This document shows positions 10,102 through 47,364 of a stretch of DNA of 64,000 nucleotides, in pieces. The position numbers were made by a program, and so were the translations under genes. This DNA comes from an uncultured Bacilli bacterium (GTDB taxonomy: Bacteria; Bacillota_I; Bacilli_A; RF39; UBA660): contig CANRBS010000003.1 in the NCBI GenBank assembly GCA_947628895.1, positions 1,325-65,324 of the forward strand, given 5' to 3'. The notes beneath the pieces are model-generated. The model was not told where the DNA came from, searched no databases, and worked only from the letters and a program-made list of their open reading frames with translations. Position 1 is the stretch's first letter. Every line of letters begins with the position of its first letter.

Positions 10102-10179
10102 TTTACACCCTCTCCTTCACTAATTAAATTTTATATAATTTATATTATTTTGTCAATAAAATTGTATGTTACTTTACAT

Positions 10180-11190: not shown

Positions 11191-11208
11191 GATTTAATCC
11201 CTCCTAGT

Positions 11209-11760: not shown

Positions 11761-11841
11761 ATTGAACTCCTTTTATTCTAATATCTAAAAAAAACTATAA
11801 ACTATAATACTATAATTTATAGTTAATTATTATTTTTAATA

Positions 11842-12114
11842 TTATTGATCAACTGCTTCACATTTGCTTTGATCCCAAGTAGTAGTACCATTACAACAAC
11901 CCCAAGCACTTACTTTAGCACTTGTACTTGTATTTTTATCATTCCCACCTGGATTTTTTACTGCATGCCAATTTTCACCCATTGTATTACAAGTTTGTTG
12001 TACAATTTGTCTTTGTATCATTGGCCACATTACAAAATAGAATAATGCAGCAAGTGCAGCAACAGCAATTAATGTTACAACTGTCATGTTTAATTCACCT
12101 GTAGCTTCTTTCAT
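11842..12114 (-). CDS. Candidate major pilin (Flp/type IV pilin-like N-terminal helix), non-canonical leader
   Basis: 90 aa: MKEATGELNMTVVTLIAVAALAALFYFVMWPMI..., then a small 4-Cys domain. It sits directly downstream of the tadC-like gene, as flp-type pilins often sit beside tad genes. It lacks the G/xxxxEY or G/FTLxE consensus. Confidence 0.4.
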   Translation of the reverse strand: MKEATGELNMTVVTLIAVAALAALFYFVMWPMIQRQIVQQTCNTMGENWHAVKNPGGNDKNTSTSAKVSAWGCCNGTTTWDQSKCEAVDQ

Positions 12115-12185
12115 TTATTTAATTCCTCCTTTACTCTATCTATATTAATTATATAATATGTATTTTTCATAATCAAGTATTTTCA

Positions 12186-12989
12186 CTATAAATTGCCAAA
12201 CATTTGTAAAATAGAAAGTAATAATAATACCATTACTCCAGCACCAGTACCAACAAGCATTGACATAGTCTTCTTTTCCATTTTATCAAGTCTTTCTTTA
12301 TATTTAGTATCTCTTGATTTTGCTTGTAAATTTGATATAGTTCTTGAGAATACTATTAATTGTTCTTGTTTTCTTTCTTGACTACCAAGACTAAGTCTAT
12401 AAAGAAGTCTCATCATACGCATTGAATCTCTTACAGGATATCTTCTAGCAAATGCCATATAAGGCTCAATTGTTGAGTCACCTGCATCAATTGAAGCAAT
12501 TAATTCACGAAGACCTGGTTTAAACATTTCAGGTGCTTCTTCTAAACTTCTTGTAATTGCAACTGGTACAGTATAGTGTTGTATTAATATTTCTAAACTT
12601 TTTAAATAATAAGGCAATTTTAAATTAATATCATGTAAATGAACTTTATAATAGTTCTTAAGTTTATTATAATCATCTTTAAAAATTAAATACGTAACTG
12701 CTAAAACTAAAACTATTTTTATTGCTATATTAAGTCCATCTATACTAGTCATTACAACTATCATTAAAATAATAAATACAATTATAGCATTTTTAACTCT
12801 TTTTTGATATTTTTGGTTTGGATCAACCTTGTCACCATACCTACTAGTAACAAGAAAATCCCAATCATCCTCTTTTAATTTTCCAAAAACCACTTTATTA
12901 TCATCAACAAACTTATTAAAACTAAATACTCCAATATAGTTAAATAAGAAAATTAAGATAATTCCAACAGCTAAAATTTCTATTCCCAT
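12186..12989 (-). CDS. tadC: Tad platform protein, T2SS-F family (TadC-like)
   Basis: 267 aa. N-terminal and C-terminal TM helices flank a helical cytoplasmic domain (...EAPEMFKPGLRELIASIDAGDSTIEPYMAFARRYP...). The start overlaps the tadB-like stop by 1 nt. Confidence 0.6.
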   Translation of the reverse strand: MGIEILAVGIILIFLFNYIGVFSFNKFVDDNKVVFGKLKEDDWDFLVTSRYGDKVDPNQKYQKRVKNAIIVFIILMIVVMTSIDGLNIAIKIVLVLAVTYLIFKDDYNKLKNYYKVHLHDINLKLPYYLKSLEILIQHYTVPVAITRSLEEAPEMFKPGLRELIASIDAGDSTIEPYMAFARRYPVRDSMRMMRLLYRLSLGSQERKQEQLIVFSRTISNLQAKSRDTKYKERLDKMEKKTMSMLVGTGAGVMVLLLLSILQMFGNL

Positions 12990-13888
12990 TATTCAGCACC
13001 TACATCCTCATGGTAATATTTAATTCCAGTTACTAAAAAGAATGTATTAATTAATATTACACCATGAAGTAATATTATAACATACCAATCTTCTAACATT
13101 TTTAAATAACTATCATTTCCAAGTAATAACTGTACTAATAATACTAATAAATATAAGGCACAACCAAATGTTAAGAATTGCTTATAAAAATTAGTTCTAT
13201 CAATTCTATCACGATAAACACTTTCAACAAGCATATCTATATCTTGAAGCATTCCTTCTAATGCTTCACCTGAATCTTTAGATCCTTCTTTAGTAATTTG
13301 AATAAATAATTGATGCATATTTTTTACTACATAATAATCATATTTTTCATTCATAAATCTTACAGCTTCATCAATAGTACCATTATCATAAGCCATTTGA
13401 ATCATTTCTTTAATATCACTAAGTAATGGATCTTCAAGAACTCCTGAATCTCTTACACCTTCTAATGATTTTACAAATGATTGAGTAGTATTATATTCCA
13501 TAATAACATTTGTAGTATATACTTGTATTTGTTCAAATATGAATTCACTATATGCTTTTTTACATCTCATATATGCAAGATATGGAATAAAAGCTATCGC
13601 GGCCACTGCATATACAACACTCCATATAATACTATAAAAATATAAATAAGATACGAAAGCTGCTGCTACACCAAATATAACTACTTGCATTAAATATTGT
13701 TTAGGAGTATATTCTTGGCCTAATTCTTTAGCTTTTTCACGAACAACTTTAAATGAATATGGAGCATATTTTTCATATGTATTACCTATTGTTTTAGCTA
13801 TAAATTTATATGAATTTGTACCTGTGTTTTTTCTATATATAAATACAAATAATAATATTGCAACTATAACAAATATTTCTATATACAT
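12989..13888 (-). CDS. tadB: Tad platform protein, T2SS-F family (TadB-like)
   Basis: 299 aa. TM helices plus the helical domain ...LEDPLLSDIKEMIQMAYDNGTIDEAVRFMNEKYD...EGSKDSGEALEGMLQDIDML..., typical of the GspF/TadB fold. Confidence 0.6.
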   Translation of the reverse strand: MYIEIFVIVAILLFVFIYRKNTGTNSYKFIAKTIGNTYEKYAPYSFKVVREKAKELGQEYTPKQYLMQVVIFGVAAAFVSYLYFYSIIWSVVYAVAAIAFIPYLAYMRCKKAYSEFIFEQIQVYTTNVIMEYNTTQSFVKSLEGVRDSGVLEDPLLSDIKEMIQMAYDNGTIDEAVRFMNEKYDYYVVKNMHQLFIQITKEGSKDSGEALEGMLQDIDMLVESVYRDRIDRTNFYKQFLTFGCALYLLVLLVQLLLGNDSYLKMLEDWYVIILLHGVILINTFFLVTGIKYYHEDVGAE

Positions 13889-13900
13889 TTTTCACACCTC

Positions 13901-15421
13901 CTAAAAATTTAATACTTCTATTCCACCTGATGATGAGTTATTATTATCATTATTTCCAGCTATATCATTAACACTAACAAATAATCCAGACATATCATTT
14001 TCATTTTCAAAATTGTTTAATTCACTCTGTGTAGATAATTCAGTAGTTTGTGTATTTTCAATTTGAGGAGTATCAGTATTTTGAATCTCAGTATTTTCAT
14101 CATTAATTGCCATATCACTTGCTTGTACATCAACAATAGGTGTTGATTCAACATTTTCCTGAGCTAAAGTAGAGCTTTCAACTACAGGAGTTGATTCTAT
14201 ATTTTCTTGAACTATATTTGGTGTTTGAGATGATTCAACACTATTTTCATCTTGTTCTACAGAATTAACATTTTCTACGGCATTAAGTGATTGATTATTA
14301 TCTACATTTTCAGGTTGATTTTCATCTGAACCATCAGATGTACTTTCATTTATTTCACTTCCCTTTGGAATAAATGGATCCTCTCTCATAACTACACCTT
14401 GAGATGCTAAATAATCTATTAAATGACTTGTTGGATTATTATAACTTTCATTACCAGCTAAGTCACGAGAATAAAGAACATTTACTTTAGCTTCATTAGC
14501 ATCATCATCTACATAAAATTCAACAACTTGTGTAATTTCTCTTTGAAATCTATTATATTGTTTTGAATAAAATCCTTTAACATGTATACCTAATTGAATA
14601 TATCTATGCATACCTTTAACAAATTGATCTATATCTTGACTAGATTCAAGCAATGAATATAAACGCATTGGAATACTTGATGCTTTATCAGAGTGAATTG
14701 TTGATAAAATGTTATGTCCTGAAGAAATAGAGTTACGAACAGCCATAACTGCTTCAGCAGAACGAACCTCTGATAGTAAAATCCATCTTGGGTTTTGACG
14801 CATACAAGCTACTAATACATCTGAATAAGATGCTATATTATTTGTTTTCATTGCTACAATATCACGAGTTGGATAAATTTTATCTAAGTGAAGCTCTAAA
14901 GTATCTTCTATTGTAATTATTTTTTCGTCTTCTTTAATATGACTTGCTAAATATTTAACAAGTTCTGTTTTACCACTACCAGTTTCTCCACTTACTAGTA
15001 TATTGCAGTGACCCTCTACACAAGTAATTAAGAAATCATGTAATTTTAATGATACATAATCTTCTTGAACTAATTTCTCTTTTTGTAATCTAATTTTAGC
15101 AGGTGTTTTTCTTATTAAAACAGCAATTCCATTAGTAGCAATAGAATCATGAACAAAATTAAGACGCAACTCAGCACTTTCAGCATCTAGAAGTGGATGA
15201 GCCATATTAAATGTTTTACCCATAACATTAGAACATTGAAAAGCTAATTTTTCCATAACTTCATTGTTTAGTCCATCTATATGTTCTGGATAAACACCTT
15301 TAGATAAAGATTTAACCCATAATTGACCACCATTAGAATATGAAATATCTGTTATATCATCATTTTCTAATAATGGCATTAATAATCCAAAATCAATTTG
15401 TGAAAATACTATCGTGTCCAT
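13901..15421 (-). CDS. tadA: CpaF/TadA-type secretion ATPase (VirB11/GspE superfamily) with ~150-aa acidic low-complexity C-terminal tail
   Basis: 506 aa. Walker A VSGETGSGKTELVKYL, ...ITIEDTLEL..., ...RQNPRWILLSEVR..., His box ...SGHNILSTIHS.... The tail (about nt 13901-14370) is E/N/Q/S-rich and has a repeated QEN(I/V)ESTP(V/I)V unit. Confidence 0.85.
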   Translation of the reverse strand: MDTIVFSQIDFGLLMPLLENDDITDISYSNGGQLWVKSLSKGVYPEHIDGLNNEVMEKLAFQCSNVMGKTFNMAHPLLDAESAELRLNFVHDSIATNGIAVLIRKTPAKIRLQKEKLVQEDYVSLKLHDFLITCVEGHCNILVSGETGSGKTELVKYLASHIKEDEKIITIEDTLELHLDKIYPTRDIVAMKTNNIASYSDVLVACMRQNPRWILLSEVRSAEAVMAVRNSISSGHNILSTIHSDKASSIPMRLYSLLESSQDIDQFVKGMHRYIQLGIHVKGFYSKQYNRFQREITQVVEFYVDDDANEAKVNVLYSRDLAGNESYNNPTSHLIDYLASQGVVMREDPFIPKGSEINESTSDGSDENQPENVDNNQSLNAVENVNSVEQDENSVESSQTPNIVQENIESTPVVESSTLAQENVESTPIVDVQASDMAINDENTEIQNTDTPQIENTQTTELSTQSELNNFENENDMSGLFVSVNDIAGNNDNNNSSSGGIEVLNF

Positions 15422-15443
15422 ACTTTAATTCCTTTCTATTTTT

Positions 15444-16202
15444 TTAATCTACTATATCTGGTTCAATATGTTCTGTTTTACTTTCTATTAAACCTTTTAA
15501 ATATTCACTTGAAATATTAGTTTCTTTATCATATGATGCATTTCTTGGTACTGGTATTAAAGAACCACTACTTAAATACATTGCTTTTCTAAGTAATAAA
15601 TGATAATCTTCAGGAACTGAGAATATTAGTGCTGATGCATTTCTTTGATCTGCACTTCTTTTAAAGATATGTTCTCCTCTATCATCTTTAACAGCTAATA
15701 CCTCTATTCCTTCTATCAATTTTCCTAAAACTAACTTATCTCCTTCATATGTTTGATAATATAAATCTATTTTATCTCCAGGAAAAATTGAATTACCATA
15801 TGTTGTAGTTGCATTTACTGGAAGTGAAACTATTGTATTATCATTACTAATATTTGACCAAGCAGAATCAGGCATTTCACTCCATTCTACAACAGCAGAA
15901 CTATAAAATAAACTTCCTTCTGGTATAAATGTATTATAATCTACATAATGATTTAATAATTGATCAGTTCTTGTAATAACATTATCAGTAATTAATGATG
16001 CTGCAACTTTTATTGTTCTAAATGAACTTTCTGTTATTTCAGTTCTTGCATCTAATTTAGTTGCTGCAACAGGAACATTTATTAAATTAGTTGCTTTATC
16101 AACTCTATAGTTATAAGCTACTACTAAAATAACTAAACATATAATAAATGAAATTATTGTTACTATACTTTTATTATGAAATAATTTACTAAGTGCTTTC
16201 AT
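15444..16202 (-). CDS. cpaB: CpaB/RcpC-like Flp pilus assembly protein (SAF + beta-clip), paralog 2
   Basis: 252 aa. N-terminal TM, SAF-like ...VPVAATKLDARTEITESSFRTIKV...FIPEGSLF..., then ...VSLPVNATTTYGNSIFPGDKIDLYY.... Confidence 0.7.
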   Translation of the reverse strand: MKALSKLFHNKSIVTIISFIICLVILVVAYNYRVDKATNLINVPVAATKLDARTEITESSFRTIKVAASLITDNVITRTDQLLNHYVDYNTFIPEGSLFYSSAVVEWSEMPDSAWSNISNDNTIVSLPVNATTTYGNSIFPGDKIDLYYQTYEGDKLVLGKLIEGIEVLAVKDDRGEHIFKRSADQRNASALIFSVPEDYHLLLRKAMYLSSGSLIPVPRNASYDKETNISSEYLKGLIESKTEHIEPDIVD

Positions 16203-17080
16203 TATTCATTACCTCCTGCTGGTTCTTCATTATTGTTAGTATCATTATTTACATCAGTATTTGTATTATTATTTCCACCAACAATATTAACACCACCATT
16301 TGTTACTCTATCTTGACTTTCTACATCAATAGATCTATCTAAAATATATCTTTGAATTCTAGAACTAACTACTCTAGTTTCTTTAGGATTATTTGAATAT
16401 TCAGCATTTCTTGGTACTGGGAATATAGTTCCATCTAAATATGATGCTTTTCTTAATAATAAATGCATATCTTCTGGAACACTAAACATTAAATAAGAAG
16501 GAGTTTTATTTTCTTCAGTTGATTCAAAAACATTATTTCCTTCTGAATCAGTTACAGATAGAACTTTTATACTTTCTATAAATTTTCCTAGCATAACTTT
16601 TCCAGTATCTAAAGTTGTAACATAATATAAATCTATATAATTTCCAGGAAAGATTGAATTACCATAAGTAGTATCTAAATTTACTTGAAGTGCAACAACA
16701 GTATTACCATCTGGTATATCTTCATATAAACTTGAAGGTAAATCTTCCCATTCAACAACCATATCTTTATAAAATAAACCTCCACTTGGTATTACTGCTT
16801 TATTAGATACATATTTTCCTATAATTTGAGAAGTACTTGTTAATAAATTGCTATTTTTAACTCCTCCTGGTACTTTCATTGTAGAAACCATATCTGATGT
16901 TATTAAAGTTCTCGGAGCTATTTCAACAGTTGCATAAGGAACACTAATAGGTTCAGTTTTCTTTTCTATTCTATAATAATATGCCCAATATAAAATACCT
17001 AGTGAAGCCAATATTGCTAAAATTGTCACTGTATTTTTATTTTTTAAAAATCTTTTAATTCCAATCATTATGCTATTCAT
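16202..17080 (-). CDS. cpaB: CpaB/RcpC-like Flp pilus assembly protein, paralog 1 (N/G/T-rich C-terminal tail)
   Basis: 292 aa with the same layout: ...VPYATVEIAPRTLITSDMVSTMKV...VIPSGGLF...VALQVNLDTTYGNSIFPGNYIDLYY.... Clearly paralogous to the next gene. 1-nt stop/start overlap. Confidence 0.7.
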   Translation of the reverse strand: MNSIMIGIKRFLKNKNTVTILAILASLGILYWAYYYRIEKKTEPISVPYATVEIAPRTLITSDMVSTMKVPGGVKNSNLLTSTSQIIGKYVSNKAVIPSGGLFYKDMVVEWEDLPSSLYEDIPDGNTVVALQVNLDTTYGNSIFPGNYIDLYYVTTLDTGKVMLGKFIESIKVLSVTDSEGNNVFESTEENKTPSYLMFSVPEDMHLLLRKASYLDGTIFPVPRNAEYSNNPKETRVVSSRIQRYILDRSIDVESQDRVTNGGVNIVGGNNNTNTDVNNDTNNNEEPAGGNE

Positions 17081-17123
17081 TCTTTTTTCCTCCTATTATC
17101 ATGATAGTAATCTATTCTAGTTA

Positions 17124-17153
17124 ATTATAACACAAAATATTTACTTAATTCAA
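17124..17153 (-). promoter_or_regulatory. Sigma-A-type promoter for the cpaB-tadA-tadBC unit
   Basis: Minus strand reads TTGAAT (17153-17148), an 18-nt spacer, then TGtTATAAT (-10 at 17129-17124). Confidence 0.45.
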
Positions 17154-17161
17154 TATGTTTC

Positions 17162-17195
17162 AAAATAAAAATGTTTAGAATTTTAATTTCTAAAC
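17162..17195 (-). terminator. Rho-independent terminator after the 140-aa gene
   Basis: GTTTAGAA (17173-17180) pairs with TTCTAAAC (17188-17195). The minus-strand hairpin is followed by ATTTTTATTTT. Confidence 0.55.
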
Positions 17196-17203
17196 ATCAC
17201 TAA

Positions 17204-17626
17204 TTAATTTGTAACATCTCCAGGTGCAGTAGTTTCTAATATTCCACTAATATATGTATTTATATTAACATCAAAGCTATCAGAATCAATTTGTGTTTCA
17301 CCACTATTTGTAACAATTCTTACTGTTGCCTTTGGTGGATACTCATGTATATCATAAAATTCAAGTCTATAGCTTTTTGAATTAGAAACACTTTCTGCAA
17401 ATCTTCTTAAATATACTTCAACAAATTTTTCTTTTGACATTACTAATTCTCCAGTTCTTCCATATGAACCAAAATCTATTGCATCAACCATTGCAGCTTT
17501 CATTATTTCTCTACTTAAATAATAATCCTCTTCATTTATAGTAGTAAATCTTTGAACAAGTAATAAAATTGCAATAATTACTATACCTAAAACTAATATT
17601 AAATATCCCCATACTGATTCTTTCAT
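17204..17626 (-). CDS. N-terminally anchored small protein (possible minor pilin/pseudopilin)
   Basis: 140 aa. MKESVWGYLILVLGIVIIAILLLV hydrophobic N-terminus, then a soluble domain. No named motif. Confidence 0.45.
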   Translation of the reverse strand: MKESVWGYLILVLGIVIIAILLLVQRFTTINEEDYYLSREIMKAAMVDAIDFGSYGRTGELVMSKEKFVEVYLRRFAESVSNSKSYRLEFYDIHEYPPKATVRIVTNSGETQIDSDSFDVNINTYISGILETTAPGDVTN

Positions 17627-17711
17627 ACTAAACCTTCTTTCAATATTACTATGTATTCTTTATAACAATTATATCAAATAAAAGAAATATTTTAAAGTAT
17701 TTTTTTATATA

Positions 17712-18350
17712 TTAAATACCATGTTTAATTTTTCTAAATTTATTACTATAAATAGAAGTAAAAACAATACATGATACTAAAAATAATACAAATTTAATTC
17801 CCCAATTTAATGCAAAAGCTTGCATTTTATCTAATAAAGTTTCTTTTTCTTCAGTTTTTTCTTCTTTTTGTTGTTCTTGAAGTATTATATTATCATAATT
17901 TTGTTTAGCAGTTACTAATATTTCTTCTGTTACTAAGCTTGTTGTAAATTGAGAATTACACATAGTGATTTTATCTTCATATCCTGCACAAGCACCAGTT
18001 CCATAAAATTTATTATAATATAATAGATTTACAAAAATTGTTCTAAGAGATGTATCACAATTGTCATTACCATAAACTTTTATTACCATATTTGTTCCTT
18101 CATTTATTTTATTTATAGTAACTTCATTATTTGAATTACTTTCATATTTTTTATCATCATATTCTACAAATAATCCATCAACAACATTGTAAACTACTAT
18201 ATCATATGTTCTAGTATTTACATTATAATTAGTATCATAAGTTATATTATTTGCAAGTAATGCATATTTATCATGTTTATCATGATCACATTCTGCTGAA
18301 TAAACAACAAATGGAAGTAACATCAATAATACAACAAATATTTTTTTCAT
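17712..18350 (-). CDS. Secreted Cys-containing protein with C-terminal TM + basic tail; third paralog of the 225-aa cassette protein
   Basis: 212 aa. Signal peptide MKKIFVVLLMLLPFVVYSA. Shares ...VYG.D.C...LRT...N(K/R)(F/Y)...C.GYEDK..MC... and an E/K-rich segment with the proteins at 24677-25354 and 28987-29664. Also shares the C-terminal helix + KFRKIKHGI layout. Confidence 0.55.
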   Translation of the reverse strand: MKKIFVVLLMLLPFVVYSAECDHDKHDKYALLANNITYDTNYNVNTRTYDIVVYNVVDGLFVEYDDKKYESNSNNEVTINKINEGTNMVIKVYGNDNCDTSLRTIFVNLLYYNKFYGTGACAGYEDKITMCNSQFTTSLVTEEILVTAKQNYDNIILQEQQKEEKTEEKETLLDKMQAFALNWGIKFVLFLVSCIVFTSIYSNKFRKIKHGI

Positions 18351-18352
18351 TT

Positions 18353-19984
18353 TTACTCTCCTTTCAATAATACAGCATGTACAACTAATCTTTTATTATT
18401 ATTACCAGTACATGTAGATAATGTTAATATTTTATCATCAGCTGTTACTTTAGTATCAAATTTATAATTACTTCTTGATTTTATTAATTTAATAAAATCT
18501 TCTTTTTCTTTTTTAGAATCAAATTTAACTTTTAAATAATCAGTCGTATAATCAACTTTATATACAGAAAATATTTTAAATTTATAATTATTATTCTCTG
18601 TATCTAAAGATATTATTAAATTATCTTTTTCTTTTCTCCATGTAGAATTTAATACTTTTTTAAGTGTTCCAAACATAGTACCATTTAACATACTATGACC
18701 ATATATAATATTATTATCATTTAATGTTTTTGCATCATTTCTATAATCTAAATAAATCCATCCCATACTATTTTTATTCTTATAAAAATCATGTTTTAAA
18801 TAATAATTATTATCATTATGTTGAACTACAGGATAAGAAATATTAGTGTTATTAACAATTAAATATCCAATAGTTTCCTTATTAATTTTTTTAAGTGATT
18901 TAAGTGAATTTTCAAAAGTATATTTTGATTTAATTTCTTCTTTTGGAATTTCTTCTTCCATTAAAACATCTCTATCTTCAAGTTCTAAATCTTCTGTTAC
19001 TACTGGTATATTATTACTTTCATCTTGTGTATTTGAAGATGCATAAGATTCATTAATTAATGTATTATTTAAACTATCTATACTAATTTTTTCTATATAA
19101 TCATATGCTTTTACAATTAATAAACAAACTACACATACATAAATACATAAAACAGAAACAAGTTTTAAATTATTTAATGTTAATTGCTTAAATAAATTAT
19201 TTTTTAAAAATGAATTAGCATATATTATTCTAAACTCACAAGTATAATCTTCCTTACATTTATCACTTAATTCTTTTAACCAATCAAAATTATTTACAAT
19301 AAAGTTACCTTTATCATATCCTTGATGAAGAAAAACAATAACATTTCTAGACTCATCATTTTTTACAAGATTAACTACAGATTCTATTAAATCTTTAGAA
19401 TATACATATATATGTATTGCTTTTAAATTATAATTAATTTTTAAAAACTCTTCTAAATCTTTTATTAATCCAAGATACTCTTTAGTTATTTTAATAACTT
19501 TTTTATAATATAAAGTATCTATTTCAAATAAATCTTGTTGACTTAAAAAATCAAAAGATATTTCATTTTGCATTGTTTTAAATACATTTATTTTTTTATC
19601 TTCAAATTTATTTAATATACTACTTGGCATATAATAACAATATATATTTTTAATATTAGTAGATAAAAATAAATTATAATCACTTATACTTATTGATGAA
19701 TTAAATTCTAATATAACATTTTCTATATTTAAATCATTTATATATGGAATTATATATTTAAATGTCATTAATCTTACAATTTTGATATTATTTATATCAT
19801 TATTTATATTTTTAATAGTCTCTAATATATTTTTATAATTCTTTTTATATTTATTTAATGTATAATAAAGAGAATCTTTATACAAACTATTTTTATTTAT
19901 AAAAACACTTTCATCATCATTAATAGTTCTATAATTAAAGATTAATGTATTATTTAATATAGTTAATACAATATATTCCTTCAT
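18353..19984 (-). CDS. srtB: Class B sortase fused to an unknown ~290-aa N-terminal domain via one TM helix
   Basis: 543 aa. The C-terminal ~190 aa read ...IGYLIVNNTNISYPVVQHNDNNYYLKHDF...IIYGHSMLNGTMFG...ILTLSTCTGNNNKRLVVHAVL (His, TLSTC Cys and Arg of sortase B). TM helix LVSVLCIYVCVVCLLIV. The N-terminal domain has no motif I recognise. Confidence 0.8.
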   Translation of the reverse strand: MKEYIVLTILNNTLIFNYRTINDDESVFINKNSLYKDSLYYTLNKYKKNYKNILETIKNINNDINNIKIVRLMTFKYIIPYINDLNIENVILEFNSSISISDYNLFLSTNIKNIYCYYMPSSILNKFEDKKINVFKTMQNEISFDFLSQQDLFEIDTLYYKKVIKITKEYLGLIKDLEEFLKINYNLKAIHIYVYSKDLIESVVNLVKNDESRNVIVFLHQGYDKGNFIVNNFDWLKELSDKCKEDYTCEFRIIYANSFLKNNLFKQLTLNNLKLVSVLCIYVCVVCLLIVKAYDYIEKISIDSLNNTLINESYASSNTQDESNNIPVVTEDLELEDRDVLMEEEIPKEEIKSKYTFENSLKSLKKINKETIGYLIVNNTNISYPVVQHNDNNYYLKHDFYKNKNSMGWIYLDYRNDAKTLNDNNIIYGHSMLNGTMFGTLKKVLNSTWRKEKDNLIISLDTENNNYKFKIFSVYKVDYTTDYLKVKFDSKKEKEDFIKLIKSRSNYKFDTKVTADDKILTLSTCTGNNNKRLVVHAVLLKGE

Positions 19985-20041
19985 TTTCTCTCCTTATTAT
20001 ATATTAATGATATCACATTTTTAATTAAAAAAAAATATGAA

Positions 20042-20551
20042 TTATTCAATTTCATATTTACTTATCATATTGTCTAATACTTTATAATTAATTAGTTTTA
20101 ACTCACTACTTACAGCTTCAACAGCTTGTCCATTTTTAATATATATTATTAATGGAGCATTAACTATTTCATAACTTACATTTGGAAATTTATTTTGAAG
20201 AATATCAATATATTTATCTTTTACATCATTTACATTCCAATATATTATTTTATCTGTTAAATTTTTCTTTTTTATTTCTTTATATAATCTTTTTTCCATT
20301 TTATAAATACTATTTGAATTAGTATAACTAACATATAAAATAGCTTCATTTGTCTCACTTAAAGCATAATCAATATCACTATCATTTATTTCTTTTATAG
20401 TTTTATCCATAAAAACAGAATTATTTATTTTCTTTGATTTTACATTTAAATAAATACTTCTACAACTTAATGTTAATACAATTACTATAATAGAAACAAC
20501 TAATACAATATAATAATTATTACTATTAATTTTCTTAAATATTTTATTCAT
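20042..20551 (-). CDS. Membrane-anchored protein, possible thioredoxin-like fold without CXXC
   Basis: 169 aa. N-terminal TM. ...AILYVSYTNSNSIYKMEKRLYKEI...IIYWNVNDV...APLIIYIKNGQAVEAVSS follows the thioredoxin beta-alpha-beta layout, with SNSI where CXXC would be. By-eye call only. Confidence 0.35.
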   Translation of the reverse strand: MNKIFKKINSNNYYIVLVVSIIVIVLTLSCRSIYLNVKSKKINNSVFMDKTIKEINDSDIDYALSETNEAILYVSYTNSNSIYKMEKRLYKEIKKKNLTDKIIYWNVNDVKDKYIDILQNKFPNVSYEIVNAPLIIYIKNGQAVEAVSSELKLINYKVLDNMISKYEIE

Positions 20552-20611
20552 AATATATCCTTACCCTTCAATATAATATTATTTTATCACAATTTTAAAT
20601 ATTATTAAACT

Positions 20612-20662
20612 TTAATTAAAAAAGAAAGATTACTTTTATAATTATTTTTATAATCTTTCTTT
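20612..20662 (-). terminator. Rho-independent terminator after the 1335-aa gene
   Basis: AAAGAAAGATTA (20621-20632) pairs with TAATCTTTCTTT (20651-20662). On the minus strand the hairpin is followed by a T-run. Confidence 0.6.
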
Positions 20663-20667
20663 TTTAC

Positions 20668-23600
20668 TTATTTTTTTTCAGCAGTATATTTTGATATACC
20701 ATCAAACTTATTTTTTTGATCATTATTATTTACATATAATGAATTTCCACCTCTTATTTCTTCTAAGAAACTACTCTTACAATTAAAGAATTTATTATCT
20801 TTTTGAGTACATGTTCCGGAAATCTTTGTATCATTAAGATATCCTCCTTGACCTTCAACTTTCCTATTATATGATTTTATTTCTCTAATTGATTGTGGTG
20901 TTAAATCAAAACTGTACTCTAAATATAAATCTGAATTTATTTGTGATGATGATTTTTCTATTTCATTCTTTGCAATTTTTCCATATTCAGTTGCCCAGTT
21001 TGAATTTATCCTATCTCCATTTGGAAATAAATCTGATAATTTTACATTTCTATATTTTGTTATAGGATCTGTTATAGAATCTGAATTTCCTGATTGTGAT
21101 TCTTGTGGTAATACAGATGGTCTAGTTACATCTATATGACATGTAAGTTCTGTAAAATCTGTTGATGTTAAATATTTACTAAATGAATCTAATGATCTTC
21201 TTCTGTAATATGTCGTCATATTATTTATTGTTTGTGTTATATCACATCTTGCTACATTAGAATCTATTACTTTACATTTTCCACTATTATATGCATCTTT
21301 TGATGTTGGATATGAATATTTATCTAATGCAACTACATCTAAACTTCCTTCATCTGTTGATTTCTTTACTTCTCCTGTTAATGCTTCCATTTTAAATTCA
21401 CTATCATTATAGAAATCTATTTGTATTGATGTATAAAACATTGCATAATCATTAATTGGTATTTTTGTTATATATAAGTCATTTAATCTCTCTGTTAAAC
21501 CAGTAAGTGTCTTCTTTACTTCAATTGCATTTTTTACTGTAGCTGTAGTACTTTCATCTTTAAACTTATCATATGCATAATTATCATCTTGACTAGCTGA
21601 TACATCATATTCTAAACAATTATCTCCACTACAATAACTTATATCTGATAGATTACTTCTTATCTCTTTTTCTACTTTTATATCATCACTATTTGTTCCA
21701 ATAAATCTATTTTTATTATTTATGTATTGGGCTCCTCCTTCATATGTTATTGTATTTGTTATATCATTGTTAAGTCCATAATGATTTTCACTACTATATA
21801 AATTTTTCAAATATTTATTTAAATTTCCTGTTTTATTATCTTGTGGCTGTCTTATAATATTTTCTTTTATTACCACTTGTCCATTTTTCTCTTGTTCTGT
21901 ATTTTTTACAGCCTCTTCTGTATATAAATTACAGTTATATAAATCATATAATATTTGATTTATATTTTCATCTCTTGAATTTTCTTTTTGTGATTTTATA
22001 AATAATACTGTTAATAAATCTTGTATATTATTTATTGACTTTTCACCACTTGGAAAAGCATCTTCTAAGTCTTTGTCTGTTATTCCATATAATTTTTTCC
22101 AATCTATAGATTCTGGGAAATTCTTATTATAATATATTTCTGATACACATCTTCTTTTTTCTTCTATTATACTTGATATTTTATTATCTTTATTTTCAAG
22201 CACTCCTCCTGGTTTTATATCATATGTAAATGATCTTCCTGATGAAACTGTTAATTTATCTGCTATATAATAATTTACTTCATCTGCACAATATACTCTA
22301 CATAAATTTGTATTTACTTTAAAGTATTCACTATAATCATAATATGATTTATTTGTATCTGAATACATATTTACTATACATTTTAATGATGGATCTCTTA
22401 CATATCCTGTATACACTCCACCATCATTATCTTGACATTTTGGTGCTGAAGTTTTTATTGAATAATCTGTACAATTTCCTGTACAATTTAATGATACACT
22501 ATATTCTTCTGTTGGATAATAGTAACTATCATTTTTCTCCTCTTCTCCACTTACTTTATTATTTTCTGATGTTGTAAATGCAAACATTATCTGATTTCCA
22601 GTTGGATTTGAACATGATACATATTTTTTTACACTAGTACTTTGAGTTGGTCTTTTATAATTTACTGAAACTTGATATTCTTTATATTTATTTTTATTTT
22701 CTGATGTACATACTGCAAAATATTCTGTATCTATTATTATTTGTCCTTTACTAGCATCATATATTTTATCATTATCATTTACATCTATCTTTTCACATTT
22801 GTCTGTTACATCATTGTAAATACAAAAATTATCAACTTTTACAGTACAATATTGTAAAATATATGCTCTTTGTGTATCTGTTAAATCTTGGTATGTTCTC
22901 TTGTCTAATGGTAATTCTGCATCTTTTTTTACATCTTTACAATTATATTCTGTTTTTGTGGTATTTGTTACTGTTCTATCAAATGTTAATACTATATTAG
23001 TTTCTCCTTTAACAAATTCACCTTTATCATTTTGTTCTTCACTTGTTTCTACATCTACTTTATCTGGTCTAGTATTTACTTCATTTCCATATAAATATTC
23101 TAGATGTTCTTGCATATATCTATTTCCTAATACAGTGTTATAAAATAATGCTAATGCTTGTCTTAATGTTGTTGTACTTCCACACACCATATTTGTATAA
23201 TTACATGTTACTTCACTAAAATAATCATTTATATAATTTTGTGACACATCTAAATAGTTATCTGGTAAATTCTTTGCAGTTAAACTTTTTAAATAATTTT
23301 CAAATATATGGTTATATCCATTTTTATATACATTAGTAGAATCAAAGAATCCTGTATCTGCACATGATGAACCATTCCATTTTGCTCTAGAAACTCCAAT
23401 TTTATCATTTCCAAAACCAGCTTGTCCAGAGTGTGCCCCCCATATTCTCATAGCAAGTTCTATTGCTTTATCACTTATATTAGTGTTATTTTTTTTCTTA
23501 TGATAATCTGCTTCTATCATTATATTTGCATATCCACAGTCTACTGTACTATAACTTGTTTGACAATTTGTTACATCAAAATCATTATCAACTTTATAAT

Positions 23601-24675
23601 TATTTCCACCATCTAAATCAAATCCTTGATTTGGATTTACACAATATGCTGGAACATTACCTACTTGAAATGATGGAGTACATGCTTGAAATGTTTGTAA
23701 TTGCCTATTGCATTGATAAACTGGACACATTAATCTGTATCTTATTGACCGATTTCCAGTAGCAAAACCTATTGCATTTGGTTCTATCTTTGCTGCTGCA
23801 CTTTCACACAATCCCCAAAAATCTTCGTTTGTTTTTTCACCTTCTGTTGCTATTACTACTTCAAATGGATCAATAGTTTTAAGACAATTATTTAGAAGTA
23901 CATTTGAACCTAAGTGTAGAGTATAATCATCATTTTTGCATTTATAACACCTTTGATTGCTACTATTATATGTATAGCCAGTTGGACATTTATAACATTT
24001 ATCAGTATTTAACAACATTTCGCCATTAGGGCAAGAATAATTAGTTGCACTATGATAAGTACCTGAACAATATCCATTATAACCACCTGTACAAGAACCT
24101 TTTCTACCATTTTTACCTACATTCCAAGTACATCCATTCCTAGTACACTGAGTAATATTTGAATAATTACAACTTTTTGGATCATGCCAAGTACATGTAG
24201 ATTTGTTGTTGCATGTACTTTTAGAAAGACCACTACAATTTGACCAAATTTTATTTTCTGTAGCCTTTCTCATATAAGTTAAATTTGAAGATAGCATTTC
24301 GCCTTTAGCAACAACTACACAAAGGCCAAATGCTTCAACTTTTCTTTCATCACTTGAGCATCTTTGATAATAAGTTGTATATGTTCCTTTATTATCTGGT
24401 CTCCAATTAGTGGCTTGTAAAAGATCACTAAATGACTCTGCAACTTTATCATAATTTGGACCTTCATATACATTAGCAAAAGCTGGAGAACCATCTGCTG
24501 CTTTTGCTCTTGAAAATCCATTACAAACCTCTGTTTTAATATTAAATCCAGCAGGAGATGCTTGACTAGTTTCATTTATTTTTACATTGCAGTCATTAAT
24601 TCCTGCCTTGCTTATAGGAATAAATGAAAAAACAAGAGAAATTGTAAATAATAATTTTAAAAATTTCTTTTTCAT
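20668..24675 (-). CDS. Giant cysteine-rich secreted protein, unknown family (paralog B1)
   Basis: 1335 aa. Signal peptide MKKKFLKLLFTISLVFSFIPISKA, no C-terminal anchor. Many Cys, e.g. ...YSCPNGEMLLNTDKCYKCPTGYTYNSSNQRCYKCKNDDY.... Conserved blocks are shared with 25437-28985. The start lies 1 nt after the stop of the upstream 225-aa gene. Confidence 0.8.
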   Translation of the reverse strand: MKKKFLKLLFTISLVFSFIPISKAGINDCNVKINETSQASPAGFNIKTEVCNGFSRAKAADGSPAFANVYEGPNYDKVAESFSDLLQATNWRPDNKGTYTTYYQRCSSDERKVEAFGLCVVVAKGEMLSSNLTYMRKATENKIWSNCSGLSKSTCNNKSTCTWHDPKSCNYSNITQCTRNGCTWNVGKNGRKGSCTGGYNGYCSGTYHSATNYSCPNGEMLLNTDKCYKCPTGYTYNSSNQRCYKCKNDDYTLHLGSNVLLNNCLKTIDPFEVVIATEGEKTNEDFWGLCESAAAKIEPNAIGFATGNRSIRYRLMCPVYQCNRQLQTFQACTPSFQVGNVPAYCVNPNQGFDLDGGNNYKVDNDFDVTNCQTSYSTVDCGYANIMIEADYHKKKNNTNISDKAIELAMRIWGAHSGQAGFGNDKIGVSRAKWNGSSCADTGFFDSTNVYKNGYNHIFENYLKSLTAKNLPDNYLDVSQNYINDYFSEVTCNYTNMVCGSTTTLRQALALFYNTVLGNRYMQEHLEYLYGNEVNTRPDKVDVETSEEQNDKGEFVKGETNIVLTFDRTVTNTTKTEYNCKDVKKDAELPLDKRTYQDLTDTQRAYILQYCTVKVDNFCIYNDVTDKCEKIDVNDNDKIYDASKGQIIIDTEYFAVCTSENKNKYKEYQVSVNYKRPTQSTSVKKYVSCSNPTGNQIMFAFTTSENNKVSGEEEKNDSYYYPTEEYSVSLNCTGNCTDYSIKTSAPKCQDNDGGVYTGYVRDPSLKCIVNMYSDTNKSYYDYSEYFKVNTNLCRVYCADEVNYYIADKLTVSSGRSFTYDIKPGGVLENKDNKISSIIEEKRRCVSEIYYNKNFPESIDWKKLYGITDKDLEDAFPSGEKSINNIQDLLTVLFIKSQKENSRDENINQILYDLYNCNLYTEEAVKNTEQEKNGQVVIKENIIRQPQDNKTGNLNKYLKNLYSSENHYGLNNDITNTITYEGGAQYINNKNRFIGTNSDDIKVEKEIRSNLSDISYCSGDNCLEYDVSASQDDNYAYDKFKDESTTATVKNAIEVKKTLTGLTERLNDLYITKIPINDYAMFYTSIQIDFYNDSEFKMEALTGEVKKSTDEGSLDVVALDKYSYPTSKDAYNSGKCKVIDSNVARCDITQTINNMTTYYRRRSLDSFSKYLTSTDFTELTCHIDVTRPSVLPQESQSGNSDSITDPITKYRNVKLSDLFPNGDRINSNWATEYGKIAKNEIEKSSSQINSDLYLEYSFDLTPQSIREIKSYNRKVEGQGGYLNDTKISGTCTQKDNKFFNCKSSFLEEIRGGNSLYVNNNDQKNKFDGISKYTAEKK

Positions 24676-25419
24676 TTTATTTCTCTCTTTCTTTCTTTTT
24701 ATATTTCGTTATCTTTACTATATATATTATTGTTATTACTACTAATGGTACTAATACATATATTCCATATTCCATTGCTATTTTAAATATCTTACTTGCT
24801 GTTAATTCTTTCTCTTTTATTTGTCTATCATATTCTCCTAGTGTCTCTTTAAATTCACTCTCTTCCATATCCTTTGTTGCATTTGTATATGTTTTACATA
24901 ATTCATGATCTGGATATTCTTCACAATATTCTGTCTTTATATATCTATTAAATCTTGGCACTGTATATCTTAATGTCTTTAATAATTCATTTGGACATGC
25001 ACTATCTTCTTTTCCATATACTTCTATTGTATATGTCTCTTCTTCTAAATTTGTATAACATCCTACTCCATATATCCCTACACTATCATAATTCTTTCCT
25101 TCTGCCTTATTTCCACTTCCATCTGTTACTATTATCTTTACATCATCTCTTAATGGTGTTATTGATAAAAAATATGCATATGTTTCTTCTTCACTCATTT
25201 CTCCTGATGGATCTGTTGTCCTTGTATCTTCCTTAAATGTTGCACTTACTCCTACTGCCCATTCATTTAGTTCTTCATCATAACATAATGCTTTTACATT
25301 TATTACTAATAATGATGAAATTATTACTATAATTAATTTTACTAATTTTTTCATTATTTCACCTACTTTTACTCTAAATAAAATTATATCAAATAAAATA
25401 GAAAAAAGAAAGATTTTAT
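24643..25419. repeat. 777-bp direct repeat, copy 1 (5' end of B1, whole A1 gene, A1 upstream region)
   Basis: Aligned by eye to 28953-29729 at a constant offset of 4310 nt with no indels. I found about five mismatches. Confidence 0.9.
24677..25354 (-). CDS. Small secreted protein with C-terminal TM anchor (paralog A1 of the cassette)
   Basis: The track ORF (272 aa) is trimmed to the internal ATG at 25354. That start gives the 225-aa MKKLVKLIIVIISSLLVINVKA... form, which differs at only two residues from 28987-29664, and it has AGGTGA upstream. Five Cys, an E/K-rich segment, then C-terminal helix + KYKKKEREK. Confidence 0.75.
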   Translation of the reverse strand: MKKLVKLIIVIISSLLVINVKALCYDEELNEWAVGVSATFKEDTRTTDPSGEMSEEETYAYFLSITPLRDDVKIIVTDGSGNKAEGKNYDSVGIYGVGCYTNLEEETYTIEVYGKEDSACPNELLKTLRYTVPRFNRYIKTEYCEEYPDHELCKTYTNATKDMEESEFKETLGEYDRQIKEKELTASKIFKIAMEYGIYVLVPLVVITIIYIVKITKYKKKEREK

Positions 25420-25432
25420 AAAAATCTTTCTT
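25395..25432 (-). terminator. Rho-independent terminator after the 1182-aa gene
   Basis: AAGAAAGATTTT (25406-25417) pairs with AAAATCTTTCTT (25421-25432). The minus strand then reads TTTTCTATTTT. The duplication boundary (25419) falls in the loop. Confidence 0.65.
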
Positions 25433-25436
25433 AAAC

Positions 25437-28400
25437 TTATTTATTTTCTTTAGTATATTTTGAAATACCATCAAATTTATTATTAGGACTATCATTATCT
25501 ACATATAATGAATTACCACTACCTATATCTCTTAAGAATGAACTTTCACAATTAAAGTATTTATCATTTGTTAAAGTACAATTTGATAATGTATTATTTA
25601 AGTAACCACCGTTTTTTTCCATTCTAGAATTATAATTTTTAATTTCTCTAATAGATTCTGGTGTTAAATCAAAACTATACTCTAAATAATAATCATCATT
25701 AGTAATTCTACTTGAAGATTCAGCTATTTCATTTTTTGCTATAGTTCCATATTCAGTTGACCAATTTGTATTATCTCTTTCTCCATTTGGGAATAAATTT
25801 GATAAATCTACATCTCTATATATAGTCTTACTATTAGCTGACTGTTCTACTGTAACTTCAGGTATTTTTACATCTACAGAACAATTAAACTTTGTAAGAG
25901 TTGATTTAGTTAAAGCATTACTTAAGTCATCAGTTTTTCTATTTCTGTAAAAAGTACTTGCATTACTAAATGTTTGAGTAACACCACAACTTGCATAGTC
26001 TTTTGATGATTTGCTACATAAATTATATGCATTTTTAGATAATGGATATGAAAAACTATCTAGTTTAGCATAATTTTCATTATATGAACCTATAATCTTA
26101 TTTACTTTTCCACTATATTGTTCTATTTCAAATTCACTTGAATTATAGAAACCAATTTGTGTTGTTATAGTAAACATTGCATAATCATTAACAGGAATTT
26201 GTGTATCTAATATTTTCTTTAAATTCTTAATAGAAGTTGATTTACCATCAATTTCATATCCTGTTGATCCTAATTCAATATTACCAAAAGTATCATAAGT
26301 ATATTTTTCATTTTTACTATCATATGGCAAACATTCATAGCCAAATCCTGTACAATACTTAACATCTGATACTTGTGATTTAACTTCTTTCTTCATATCT
26401 ATATCATTGTTATTATTGCCTACTCTTGAAGATGAATTCATATATTCACTTCCACCTTCATATGAAACAGTATTTAGCCACATATCATCTAAATTTTTAG
26501 AATCTACTAAACCATAATTATTTTTACTATTAAATAAAGTATTTACATAATTATAAGAATCTCCGATAGTATTATCTTTAGGTCTTGTTATATTTCCATT
26601 AGTAAATGTTGATATGTCTTTGACAAAATTACAATTATATAAATCATATACTAATTGATTTAAATTTTCAGATCTATAACCTTCAGATTGAGACTTTTTA
26701 AATAATACAAAGAATAAATCTTTCCAATTTCTAATTTTAGGATCATCTTTAAGATATTTATTAATTTCTTCTTCTGTTATTCCATATATTCCTTCCCAAT
26801 CAGGATTATTTGGAAATTCATTATTATAGTATATTTCAGAGACACAATTTCTCTTTTCTTCAATAATACTACTAAACATTTTACCACTATCATTTAATAG
26901 ATTACCTGGTTTAATATCATATTTAAATTGTAAACCAGAAACAGCATCTATTTTTCCTGCTATATGATAGTTAACTTCATCACTACAATATACTCTACAT
27001 AAATTTGTATTTACTTTAAAGTAATTGCTATAATCATAATAATTTTTATTTGTATTTGAACCCATATTAATAATACAACTTAATGATGGATCTTTTACTG
27101 TACTAGTATAGTACTTATTGTATTCTTTTTGACTTTCACATTTACTTACATTTTCTCTTATTCCATAATTAGTACAAGCACCTGCACAATTAATAGATAT
27201 ATTAAATAGTTTATCATCTTTTTCATCTTTTGTTATACTTTCACCTGGTACTTCTTCAGTAACAGAAACTCCTTGAAATGAAAATAAGTATTGATTTTCT
27301 TCTGGTTCACTACAAGCAATATATTTTTCAACACTAGTCTGTGTTTTAGTTTTTAAATATTCAACTTCTAATTCATAATGAGTATATTTCTTTTGACCAT
27401 TAACTTTACAAGCAGCAAACTTTTCTATATCAAAATCTATTGTTCCTTTATATCCATCAAATTCTTTACTATCTTTATCTACATCAATAGGTATTCTATT
27501 TCCATCATTGTCATATACAAAGAAATTTAAAACTTCAATATTACAATATTTTAATATATTTTCTCTTAAAGGTTCATCTATATTAGGATATTTTCTTTTT
27601 TCTTTTGGTAAATCTTTATCTTTTTCTAAATCATTACAATTAAATGTTTCTTCAGTTTGAATATTAACATTTCTTTCAAATGATAATTCTAATCTTGATT
27701 TTTCTTCTACAGTTTCTACTATAGCATTTGTAGGTTCAGTATTAATATCATATCCTACAATACTATATAGATGTTCTTGCATATATTTATTTCCATTATA
27801 TGTATTAAAGAATAAAGCTATAGCTTCAGCATAATTTAGTAATTTACCACAAACCAAACTGTTTTGTGAATTTTTACATGTAACTTCATCAAAATAACTA
27901 TTAGCTTTGCTAGCATCTACATATTCTTCTTTACTTATTTTATCAAAGAAATATTTCCAAATATAATCATGTGTTATTTTATAAATATTAATTACATCAT
28001 CATCTGCAACAAAAGTTACATACTCACTACAAGAACCGCCTATTACATTAGCTACTCCAACTTTTTTATCATCAAATCCTGCTCCACCAGTATGAACACC
28101 CCATAATCTTAATGCAAGTTGTATTTGTTGCTCATCAATATTATGATATTTTCCCTCAATTAATATATTAGCATAACCACAATCTGCTCTATTAAAGCTT
28201 GATGCAAAACATTTATTAATATCAAAAGTTTTATCTAACATATAATTATTACCATTTGATAAAAATGGAGCAAATCCTTGACTAGGATTAACACAATAAG
28301 CTGGTTTTTCACCAGTTGTAAATGTTGGTGTACAAGTAGATACCTCTTCAGTTTTTGCATCACATCCATATAGTGGACAATTTAATGTATATGTTTCACT

Positions 28401-29729: not shown

Positions 29730-29755
29730 TGTATAATTAATTAGAGGTATTTTTT

Positions 29756-44371: not shown

Positions 44372-44986
<615 letters not shown>

Positions 44987-46694: not shown

Positions 46695-46698
46695 ATTT

Positions 46699-47262: not shown

Positions 47263-47364
47263 AGCTATCCTCCTTATTCATATTTTTATGATAACAAATT
47301 TATAATTAGTTTACAATAAAGGCAATTAAAAAAGTGAATTACTTCACTTAAATTTTACAATATT

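Follow-up and report, generated by a model that had tools for sequence, protein, structure and literature searches.

The sequence considered here is a 64,000-nucleotide stretch from the genome of an uncultured Bacilli bacterium (contig CANRBS010000003.1, positions 1,325 to 65,324), which we refer to as the window and which has a GC content of approximately 23%. At window positions 18353 to 19984, on the minus strand and with the stop codon included, lies a 543-amino-acid (aa) open reading frame (ORF) that starts with ATG and encodes a class B sortase carrying a large N-terminal domain (N-domain). Coordinates given below for genes of the sortase operon refer to the minus strand of the window. 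The ribosome-binding site, AAGGAG, is found at 19990 to 19995, 7 nucleotides 5' of the sortase ATG, and the first ATG is the only one in the ORF to have a strong site of this kind. Scans for promoters and terminators were uninformative in sequence of this composition.

The catalytic domain comprises residues 348-543 (18356 to 18943). The NCBIfam equivalog TIGR03064, "class B sortase," matches residues 352-535 from profile position 54 onward with 173.5 bits, above the curated cutoff of 153.75, and the Pfam Sortase family matches the 543-aa protein at 1.7e-15. When the PDB was searched by sequence with phmmer, the best match of the sortase domain was Bacillus anthracis SrtB (5e-39). Likewise, the top 19 matches of the sortase domain in a Foldseek search are all class B sortases (E values of 5e-21 to 4e-14, target TM-scores of 0.68-0.90), and sortases of classes A, C, and D appear only from an E value of 1e-7. 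These matches point to a class-B-type fold, in which the sortase beta-barrel is accompanied by N-terminal helices and a long helical beta6/beta7 loop. The catalytic triad consists of His430 (18695 to 18697) in IIYGHSM, Cys525 (18410 to 18412) in TLSTC, and Arg532 (18389 to 18391) in RLVVHAVL, the same three hallmarks that the initial annotation of this stretch had picked out. The triad lies in TLxTC and R-x-V-x-H contexts, and all three residues are kept in 44 of 45 close and 49 of 54 distant family members. Judged by profile, sequence, and predicted fold, the gene product is a class B sortase (SrtB, MEROPS C60B) and is predicted to be catalytically active.

A standard sortase has a short N-terminal anchor that leads straight into the catalytic domain, for a total of approximately 220-260 aa. 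The architecture here departs from that of a standard SrtB, since the protein is 543 aa long and places 272 residues ahead of its transmembrane (TM) helix. A hydropathy scan reveals exactly one hydrophobic segment, residues 273-291 (19112 to 19168), which we assign as a single TM helix in an N-in/C-out orientation; a lysine cluster on the N-terminal side of the helix fits this orientation. Because sortase catalytic domains work outside the membrane and there is a single TM helix, the N-terminal domain is predicted to be cytoplasmic. The initial annotation had described one TM helix preceded by about 290 residues that lack a signal peptide and are predicted to be cytoplasmic. The single helix and the cytoplasmic location are borne out by the topology, the absence of a signal peptide is confirmed, and the hydropathy scan revises the size to approximately 270 aa.

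An AlphaFold2 model of residues 1-272, calculated from a 29-sequence alignment, has a pLDDT of 89.3 and a pTM of 0.82. In this model, the cytoplasmic N-domain (residues 1-256, 19217 to 19984) has a beta-hairpin cap at residues 4-19, a third strand at 38-41, and a helix at 43-60, followed by eight beta/alpha units whose strands lie at residues 66, 89, 113, 133, 163, 189, 216, and 250. A full-length model (pLDDT of 82.3) leaves the secondary structure of the N-domain unchanged and places the sortase domain at residues 348-540. Between the N-domain and the membrane lies a juxtamembrane helix, residues 257-272 (NSFLKNNLFKQLTLNN; 19169 to 19216), which runs on into the TM helix. This segment is near-invariant in the close clade and is the best-conserved N-terminal segment across the family (0.50). 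In the full-length model, the juxtamembrane segment and the TM helix form one unbroken helix spanning residues 257-310, with no linker, and the N-domain is thus predicted to sit directly at the inner face of the membrane. On the other side, residues 292-347 (18944 to 19111) form an acidic extracellular tether that is poorly conserved (column conservation of 0.22) and predicted to be disordered from about residue 305, with a pLDDT below 50 over residues 305-344 of the full-length model. As modeled, the catalytic domain hangs outside the cell on a disordered acidic tether of approximately 55 residues.

The union of these two domains is a widespread feature. With residues 1-309 as the query, we retrieved 137 clusters at 90% identity, nearly all of which are 530-541 aa long and contain Pfam Sortase, and an N-domain profile search of 1.84 billion representatives recovered 132 clusters at 50% identity. 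All members of the N-domain family that are at least 470 aa long also bear a sortase domain, full-length ones measuring approximately 510-565 aa; shorter members reach no further than the TM helix and appear to be truncated. The fusion is intact in 52 genome loci, even where the N-domain identity falls to 33-38%. The initial annotation had allowed for a sequencing or annotation error (such as a missed frameshift or stop) that would hide two separate genes, and there is a negligible chance that two genes have been joined here by an error of sequencing, assembly, or annotation: a single 510-565-aa ORF recurs in more than 100 independent assemblies (NCBI, ENA, JGI, and Logan), and the strong ribosome-binding site stands at the first ATG alone. 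A frameshift or two-gene reading is excluded by the intact fusion in both sets of clusters. Thus, the fusion stands, and a survey of homologs, which the initial annotation had proposed, finds the same extension throughout the 132 clusters. The only partner other than a sortase that we saw for the N-domain is in P0110, a 416-aa protein on a 2.2-kb contig in which the N-domain, together with half of the TM helix, is joined to a polytopic C-terminus resembling Acyl_transf_3; this protein is probably an assembly chimera.

The 52 loci come from metagenome-assembled genomes (MAGs) of uncultured gut bacteria labeled Bacilli, Tenericutes, Mollicutes, Erysipelotrichaceae, and "Clostridium sp. CAG:524 / CAG:1000," which we take to be RF39-type Bacilli. 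A survey of RF39 genomes predicts a peptidoglycan wall and the retention of srtA/B (PMC10868615).

We could match the N-domain to no known family. Residues 1-309 hit nothing in Pfam at E<=10 or in NCBIfam, and Pfam searches with all 29 aligned members at E<=5 gave no family common to more than two members and no leucine-rich repeat (LRR) family. A profile search of the PDB with the N-domain yielded no match, and a Foldseek search of the PDB yielded nothing at E<=1e-3, in keeping with the initial description of the domain as uncharacterized. The weak Foldseek matches in the PDB are to TIM-barrel-like enzymes, Rossmann-type dehydrogenases, and NLRP LRR domains, with TM-scores of approximately 0.25. 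Against BFVD, two marginal matches were obtained (E values down to 5.7e-4, TM-scores of approximately 0.25), the best matches there being uncharacterized, F-box, and LRR proteins of giant viruses. LRR proteins account for many of these weak fold matches (E values of 6e-4 to 1e-1, with TM-scores again near 0.25). The modeled N-domain alternates strand/helix units of approximately 20-34 residues, which weakly recalls the LRR solenoids of ribonuclease inhibitor and F-box-LRR proteins; unlike them, it has no LRR consensus (LxxLxLxxN/C). An actin-like fold of the PilM/GspL type, suggested by the N-terminal beta-beta-beta-alpha pattern, has no support from Foldseek.

By hhalign (99.9%), the homology between close and distant N-domain subfamilies extends from end to end; a profile search of a word-indexed protein database with the distant N-domains gave only 4 matches and was uninformative. 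Across 53 full-length representatives, the median identity to the window protein is 23% for the N-domain and 46% for the sortase domain, so that the N-domain evolves approximately twice as fast. No polar, charged, or catalytic-type residue of the N-domain is conserved family-wide among these 53 representatives, and for this reason the domain reads as a docking module and not as an enzyme. A motif that is invariant in the close clade, D210-E211...H220-Q221...D224, is lost in relatives at 33-38% identity; we reject a catalytic role of DE210-211, H220, and D224, the motif being clade-specific.

This pattern bears on the idea that the N-domain is an enzyme or a nucleotide- or sugar-binding regulatory domain, such as a degenerate relative of glycosyltransferase-like or Rossmann-like folds that senses a cytoplasmic metabolite or a cell-wall precursor. 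Such an idea can draw on the alpha/beta fold, on the motif just described, on sub-threshold matches of single members to Glyco_tranf_2_4 (E values of 0.12-0.15) and Glyco_transf_61, and on a few GT-B, TarA, and dehydrogenase structures among the insignificant Foldseek matches. However, the weak glycosyltransferase match occurs in only 2 of 29 members, the Foldseek TM-scores are all approximately 0.2-0.3, and neither the motif nor any other polar residue persists across the family, all of which makes an enzymatic or ligand-sensing domain very unlikely. A further indication comes from apparent pseudo-sortases. Three members, P0118, P0123, and P0136 (the last at locus L053, 10001 to 11560), have replaced the catalytic His and Cys (e.g., IIYGK.. 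and LTLTTF), and these three catalytically dead lineages still keep the N-domain and the TM helix, which argues for a role of the N-domain separate from catalysis. We take the N-domain to be a beta/alpha solenoid-like interaction module without a solved homolog and not an enzyme. What the family presents is a conserved, folded, membrane-apposed cytoplasmic domain on a class B sortase, without a known relative.

If the N-domain is an interaction module, its partner may be encoded close by. The gene that follows the sortase gene, starting 2 nucleotides after its stop codon (17712 to 18350), encodes a 212-aa protein that we call L, with a signal peptide, a four-cysteine ectodomain, a stalk rich in E, P, and K, a pre-TM helix, a TM helix, and a cytoplasmic tail. 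L directly follows the sortase gene in 48 of the 52 genome loci. The tail has the form K-x-R-K-x-K-H-G-I-COOH, in which the Lys is found in 46 of 46 proteins, the His in 44, and the Gly and the Ile in 40 each. At a median pairwise identity of 36%, the tail is the best-conserved segment of L, scoring 0.69 versus 0.53 for the ectodomain. Divergent lineages, whose N-domains are 33-38% identical, keep the pattern (K/R)(K/R)-hydrophobic-K-(H/Y)-(G/K)-hydrophobic-COOH, their tails ending in ..K(Y/H)K(L/I/F). Directly upstream of the sortase gene, in the window and in nearly all loci of the clade, lies a gene for a 169-aa membrane-anchored thioredoxin-like protein (20042 to 20551) of family PF20207 (DUF6568 or PedC-like) that has no CxxC. 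A 140-aa DUF5411 protein (17204 to 17626), whose prepilin-like N-terminus reads MKESVWG|YLIL..., forms part of one conserved module together with the sortase and L. In the minimal form of the module, made up of the PedC-like protein, a VWA-domain protein, the sortase, L, and DUF5411, no protein has a sizeable cytoplasmic domain except the sortase, with its N-domain.

Since the tail is the most conserved part of L and the N-domain is the only sizeable cytoplasmic domain of the module, the tail of L is, by sequence comparison, the best and most economical candidate ligand of the N-domain in this clade. We propose that the N-domain is a protein-protein docking module on the inner face of the membrane. 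By binding a partner in the cytoplasm, or the cytoplasmic tail of a partner in the membrane, it would gate the sortase or set its position, and in this clade the invariant C-terminal tail of the co-translated L would be the best candidate for what it binds. That the N-domain acts in docking or positioning through a protein partner is a model-based proposal to which we give about an even chance; as specific partners, the tails of L or of substrates have a low probability. Several observations weigh against the docking proposal. No L-like gene lies within 10 kb of the sortase gene in distant members of the family, and L is therefore not a universal ligand unless it is encoded elsewhere in those genomes. 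The N-domain has a net charge close to neutral, which offers no electrostatic hint for the binding of basic tails. The likeness to LRR proteins is weak, given TM-scores of approximately 0.25 and no Pfam LRR match, and internal repeats of the N-domain are not significant (profile self-comparison, E value of 0.06). Finally, the family is limited to related uncultured low-GC Firmicutes, so the synteny may partly reflect common descent.

The genes from 9733 to 29664 are all on the minus strand, and their order around the sortase is conserved in approximately 45 loci of the clade. In the direction of transcription, the operon begins with two tandem pairs (20668 to 29664), each consisting of a small L paralog (225 aa) and a giant Cys-rich secreted protein (1182 and 1335 aa), and continues with the PedC-like gene, the sortase, L, and DUF5411. 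It then passes into type IV filament (Tad-like) genes (9733 to 17080): two CpaB/RcpC-like proteins, a T2SSE ATPase, two polytopic proteins, and proteins of 90, 183, 336, and 122 aa. The T2SSE ATPase scores above the family cutoff and the two CpaB/RcpC-like proteins score just below theirs; TadB/C and TadZ were assigned by eye alone, with no Pfam match. The 336-aa protein looks like a receiver domain joined to a degenerate ParA domain, and the 122-aa protein is pilin-like with two TM helices. In the 90-aa, 183-aa, and DUF5411 proteins (11842 to 12114, 11209 to 11760, and 17204 to 17626), a leader of the form M(K/R)E(A/S)xxG precedes a hydrophobic helix, as in prepilins; among the ORFs of the window that were examined, we saw no gene for a prepilin peptidase (A24). 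The T2SSE/CpaF-like ATPase (13901 to 15421) carries a C-terminal low-complexity extension of approximately 150 aa that is rich in N, E, Q, and S and unusual for the family.

The position of the sortase in this operon raises the possibility that the N-domain docks the enzyme on the cytoplasmic side of the type IV filament machine, at its ATPase, TadZ-like, or platform proteins, so that anchoring happens where the pilus or cargo emerges. A coupling to the Tad-like machinery was already suggested in the initial annotation, and the Tad-like operon is real, the order of PedC-like, sortase, L, (small/giant pairs), DUF5411, two CpaB, and ATPase genes being kept in the approximately 45 loci. The layout of a cytoplasmic domain, one TM helix, and an outer domain also recalls GspL of type II secretion. 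In GspL and PilM-PilN, too, a cytoplasmic domain of approximately 250 aa is linked through one TM helix to an outer domain, and the genes lie in a type IV filament operon; unlike these proteins, the sortase shows no similarity to them in sequence or fold, has an enzyme as its outer domain, and belongs to a family also found outside such operons. Indeed, we found no homology of the N-domain to any component of Tad, type IV pilus, or type II secretion systems, whether by Pfam and NCBIfam searches with residues 1-309, by Foldseek (which gave no PilM/GspL fold match), or by comparison with the other proteins of the operon. A related operon, with CpaF, PilC/GspF, and DUF5411, has been predicted to encode a secretion system in Clostridia (Roseburia, Ruminococcus, and Eubacterium; Miller et al. 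2022, PMC9523054); it has DUF5411 and the CpaF-type ATPase in common with the operon here, and no sortase is reported there.

The link to Tad genes is absent in other lineages of the sortase family. At five loci with distant members (L053 and L055-L058), the fusion gene has housekeeping genes on either side (recX/glyS, RNase R, rpsL-fusA-tuf, and nrdD), and profile searches of these neighborhoods found no Tad, DUF5411, PedC-like, or 212-aa-family genes. An exception at L056 is a CHAP-domain protein with a domain related to the 122-aa pilin-like protein. Compact modules at L059 and L060 consist of QueG, a PedC-like protein, a VWA protein on the opposite strand, the sortase, an L-like protein, DUF5411, and a SipW-like signal peptidase, followed by an ABC transporter, with no Tad ATPase on these contigs of 8.7-11.4 kb. 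The SipW-like signal peptidase I genes that end the modules (L059, 4644 to 5156; L060, 2510 to 3103) encode a GDSMEPT motif and bring to mind SipA/LepA, the streptococcal cofactor of class B sortases that polymerize pili. At three further loci (L045, L047, and L048), the gene directly after the sortase is a homolog of the 336-aa receiver/ParA-like protein, which speaks for the Tad idea, and it is followed by a homolog of the 122-aa protein; however, the cluster that adjoins them resembles a type IV secretion system, with a VirB4-type ATPase, and is not Tad. Taken with the absence of the link in distant lineages and compact modules, this makes docking on the Tad machine unlikely as the role of the N-domain. 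The 336-aa and 122-aa genes of the window may, by their gene context, belong to a machine other than the Tad-like genes. In the L045 region (11631 to 20817), the type IV secretion-like cluster includes a larger protein with a pilin-like C-terminus, a 666-aa polytopic protein, a 596-aa VirB4/TraG-type ATPase, and a SpoIID-like protein.

We next consider the substrate of the sortase. No ORF of the 64-kb window contains an LPXTG, NPxTN, or SPxTG sorting signal, and none of 43 close loci has an NPxT[GN] or (S/P)PxTG signal within 10 kb of the sortase. The only operon proteins that end in a hydrophobic segment and a basic tail are those of 212, 225, and 272 aa. The 212-aa and 225-aa families are paralogous (hhalign probability of 98.7%); both have a signal peptide, a four-cysteine ectodomain, a stalk rich in E, P, and K, a TM helix, and a tail, and they share a conserved pre-TM helix, T-x-x-D-K-x-x-D-F-x-x-x-W-G, with a moderately conserved Thr 13 residues ahead of it. 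Their ends resemble sorting signals but contain no xPxT[GN] motif, and the two proteins are unlikely to be canonical substrates.

The situation differs in sister lineages. At six loci (L044, L045, L046, L048, L059, and L060), the fusion gene is adjoined by a gene for a 407-436-aa VWA-domain protein that ends in NPKTG (SPKTG at L048), a hydrophobic segment, and a basic tail. VWA domains are typical of pilus tip adhesins. NPKTG is also the sorting motif of B. anthracis SrtB (PMC11987632). Because NPKTG proteins adjoin the gene in sister lineages and the closest solved relative is the NPKTG-specific enzyme of B. anthracis, the sortase family is very probably NPKTG-specific, as far as sequence can tell. 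The initial annotation had left the substrate open after finding no canonical signal in the window; that negative holds, and the class of substrate is now less open. A search for VWA-NPKTG homologs, aimed at a substrate in the lineage of the window itself, returned only 6 clusters, all from the sister lineage, and the substrate of the window's sortase is presumably encoded elsewhere in the genome.

The tails of the six VWA proteins share the form KR(K/R)(E/D)-x-F-x-x-I-COOH. Candidate ligand peptides from C-terminal tails are YSNKFRKIKHGI and IIKRKEIFLQI. In a second account of the N-domain, it would be a cytoplasmic receptor for the C-terminal tails of both the VWA-NPKTG substrates and L, so that clients would be recognized on both faces of the membrane. 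The VWA tails show unusual conservation and have a hydrophobic last residue, the tail of L is the most conserved part of that protein, and in the model the N-domain is rigidly fixed at the face of the membrane from which tails of 9-11 residues would emerge. On the other hand, the six VWA proteins are 48-100% identical overall, so their tails may be conserved for trivial reasons; the 225-aa paralogs do not have conserved tails; and the N-domain is not acidic. We therefore regard two-sided recognition as unlikely. Carried to its full extent, it would describe a sortase subfamily whose catalytic domain reads NPKTG outside and whose cytoplasmic solenoid reads the tails of L and the VWA proteins, such that a cytoplasmic state or partner would decide which proteins are anchored and where, and the catalytically dead members would be pure scaffolds; this fuller picture is doubtful to a similar degree.

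The closest solved relative of the catalytic domain is B. anthracis SrtB (PDB 2OQW/1RZ2), which is NPKTG-specific and anchors IsdC (Foldseek E value of 5e-21, 39% identity, target TM-score of 0.77). The two enzymes have the same His-Cys-Arg triad, and [N/S]PKTG proteins adjoin the gene in the sister lineages of the family described here. Whereas B. anthracis SrtB has 254 aa, a short N-terminal anchor, and a place in the isd heme-uptake locus, the present sortase has a folded cytoplasmic domain of 272 aa and a tether of approximately 55 aa, and its family has a VWA-domain neighbor as the likely substrate and no isd genes. Clostridioides difficile SrtB (PDB 4UX7/5GYJ), a housekeeping enzyme specific for (S/P)PxTG, is 41% identical in the Foldseek alignment and calls to mind the SPKTG variant at L048; like the present protein, it is an enzyme of an anaerobic gut Firmicute, and it acts on adhesin-like substrates and has no cytoplasmic domain. 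Streptococcus pyogenes Spy0129/SrtC2 and the Streptococcus pneumoniae type II pilus SrtB (PDB 3PSQ and 4Y4Q) have the class B fold in common with the window's enzyme at only 26-28% identity. The pilus-polymerizing class B sortases of streptococci need a signal-peptidase-like cofactor, SipA (PMC11987632), and a SipW-like signal peptidase and a VWA protein likewise accompany the sortase in the L059 and L060 modules. Unlike the streptococcal pilus loci, those of the present family have one sorting-signal protein per locus and no evident pilin set, and the window operon has no signal peptidase.

In the searchable literature, we found no description of a sortase with a large cytoplasmic domain, and nothing on DUF6568/PedC-like proteins or on Tad operons of Firmicutes that contain sortases. 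Textbooks present sortases as "outside-only" enzymes whose anchor is minimal, and how they are positioned and how they choose clients beyond the pentapeptide are poorly understood. [quoted passage not shown] The family offers a defined and testable pair in the N-domain and the invariant tail of the co-translated L, and it adds an unannotated domain family without a solved homolog. It also indicates that surface-protein sorting takes a modified form in a major group of uncultured gut Bacilli, represented by MAGs labeled Bacilli, Tenericutes, and Clostridium sp. CAG.

Several further observations concern other parts of the window. A segment of approximately 790 bp is 96-100% identical between 24630 to 25420 and 28940 to 29730 and covers the 225-aa gene together with approximately 60 bp upstream of it. 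The giant genes directly downstream of the two copies are only 73-80% identical. This near-identity suggests either that gene conversion has recently acted on the small gene alone or that the assembly has collapsed here. The 272-aa ORF version of the second 225-aa copy (24677 to 25495) is an upstream over-extension, the true start probably being the internal MKKLVKLIIV.

Outside the operon, a second surface-fiber-like region lies on the minus strand at 46086 to 47940, beside a 3031-aa ORF at 51089 to 60184. It encodes a SipW-like type I signal peptidase (202 aa, ...SPSMTPN...) and then two proteins of approximately 190 aa, of which the 191-aa one has a signal peptide of the TasA/camelysin type (...GATFAWFS...). 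The proteins of this region have no Pfam match at E<=1e-3, and judging from their sequences it looks like a second, separate surface-fiber system. On the plus strand, positions 44372 to 44986 encode a 204-aa collagen-like protein that is made of GPT/GAT triplets, has a short non-repeat C-terminal domain, and resembles exosporium proteins of the BclA type. The ORF that follows the collagen-like gene (44990 to 46063) appears by eye to be glycosyltransferase/TPR-like, and the local GC content rises there to as much as 0.30.

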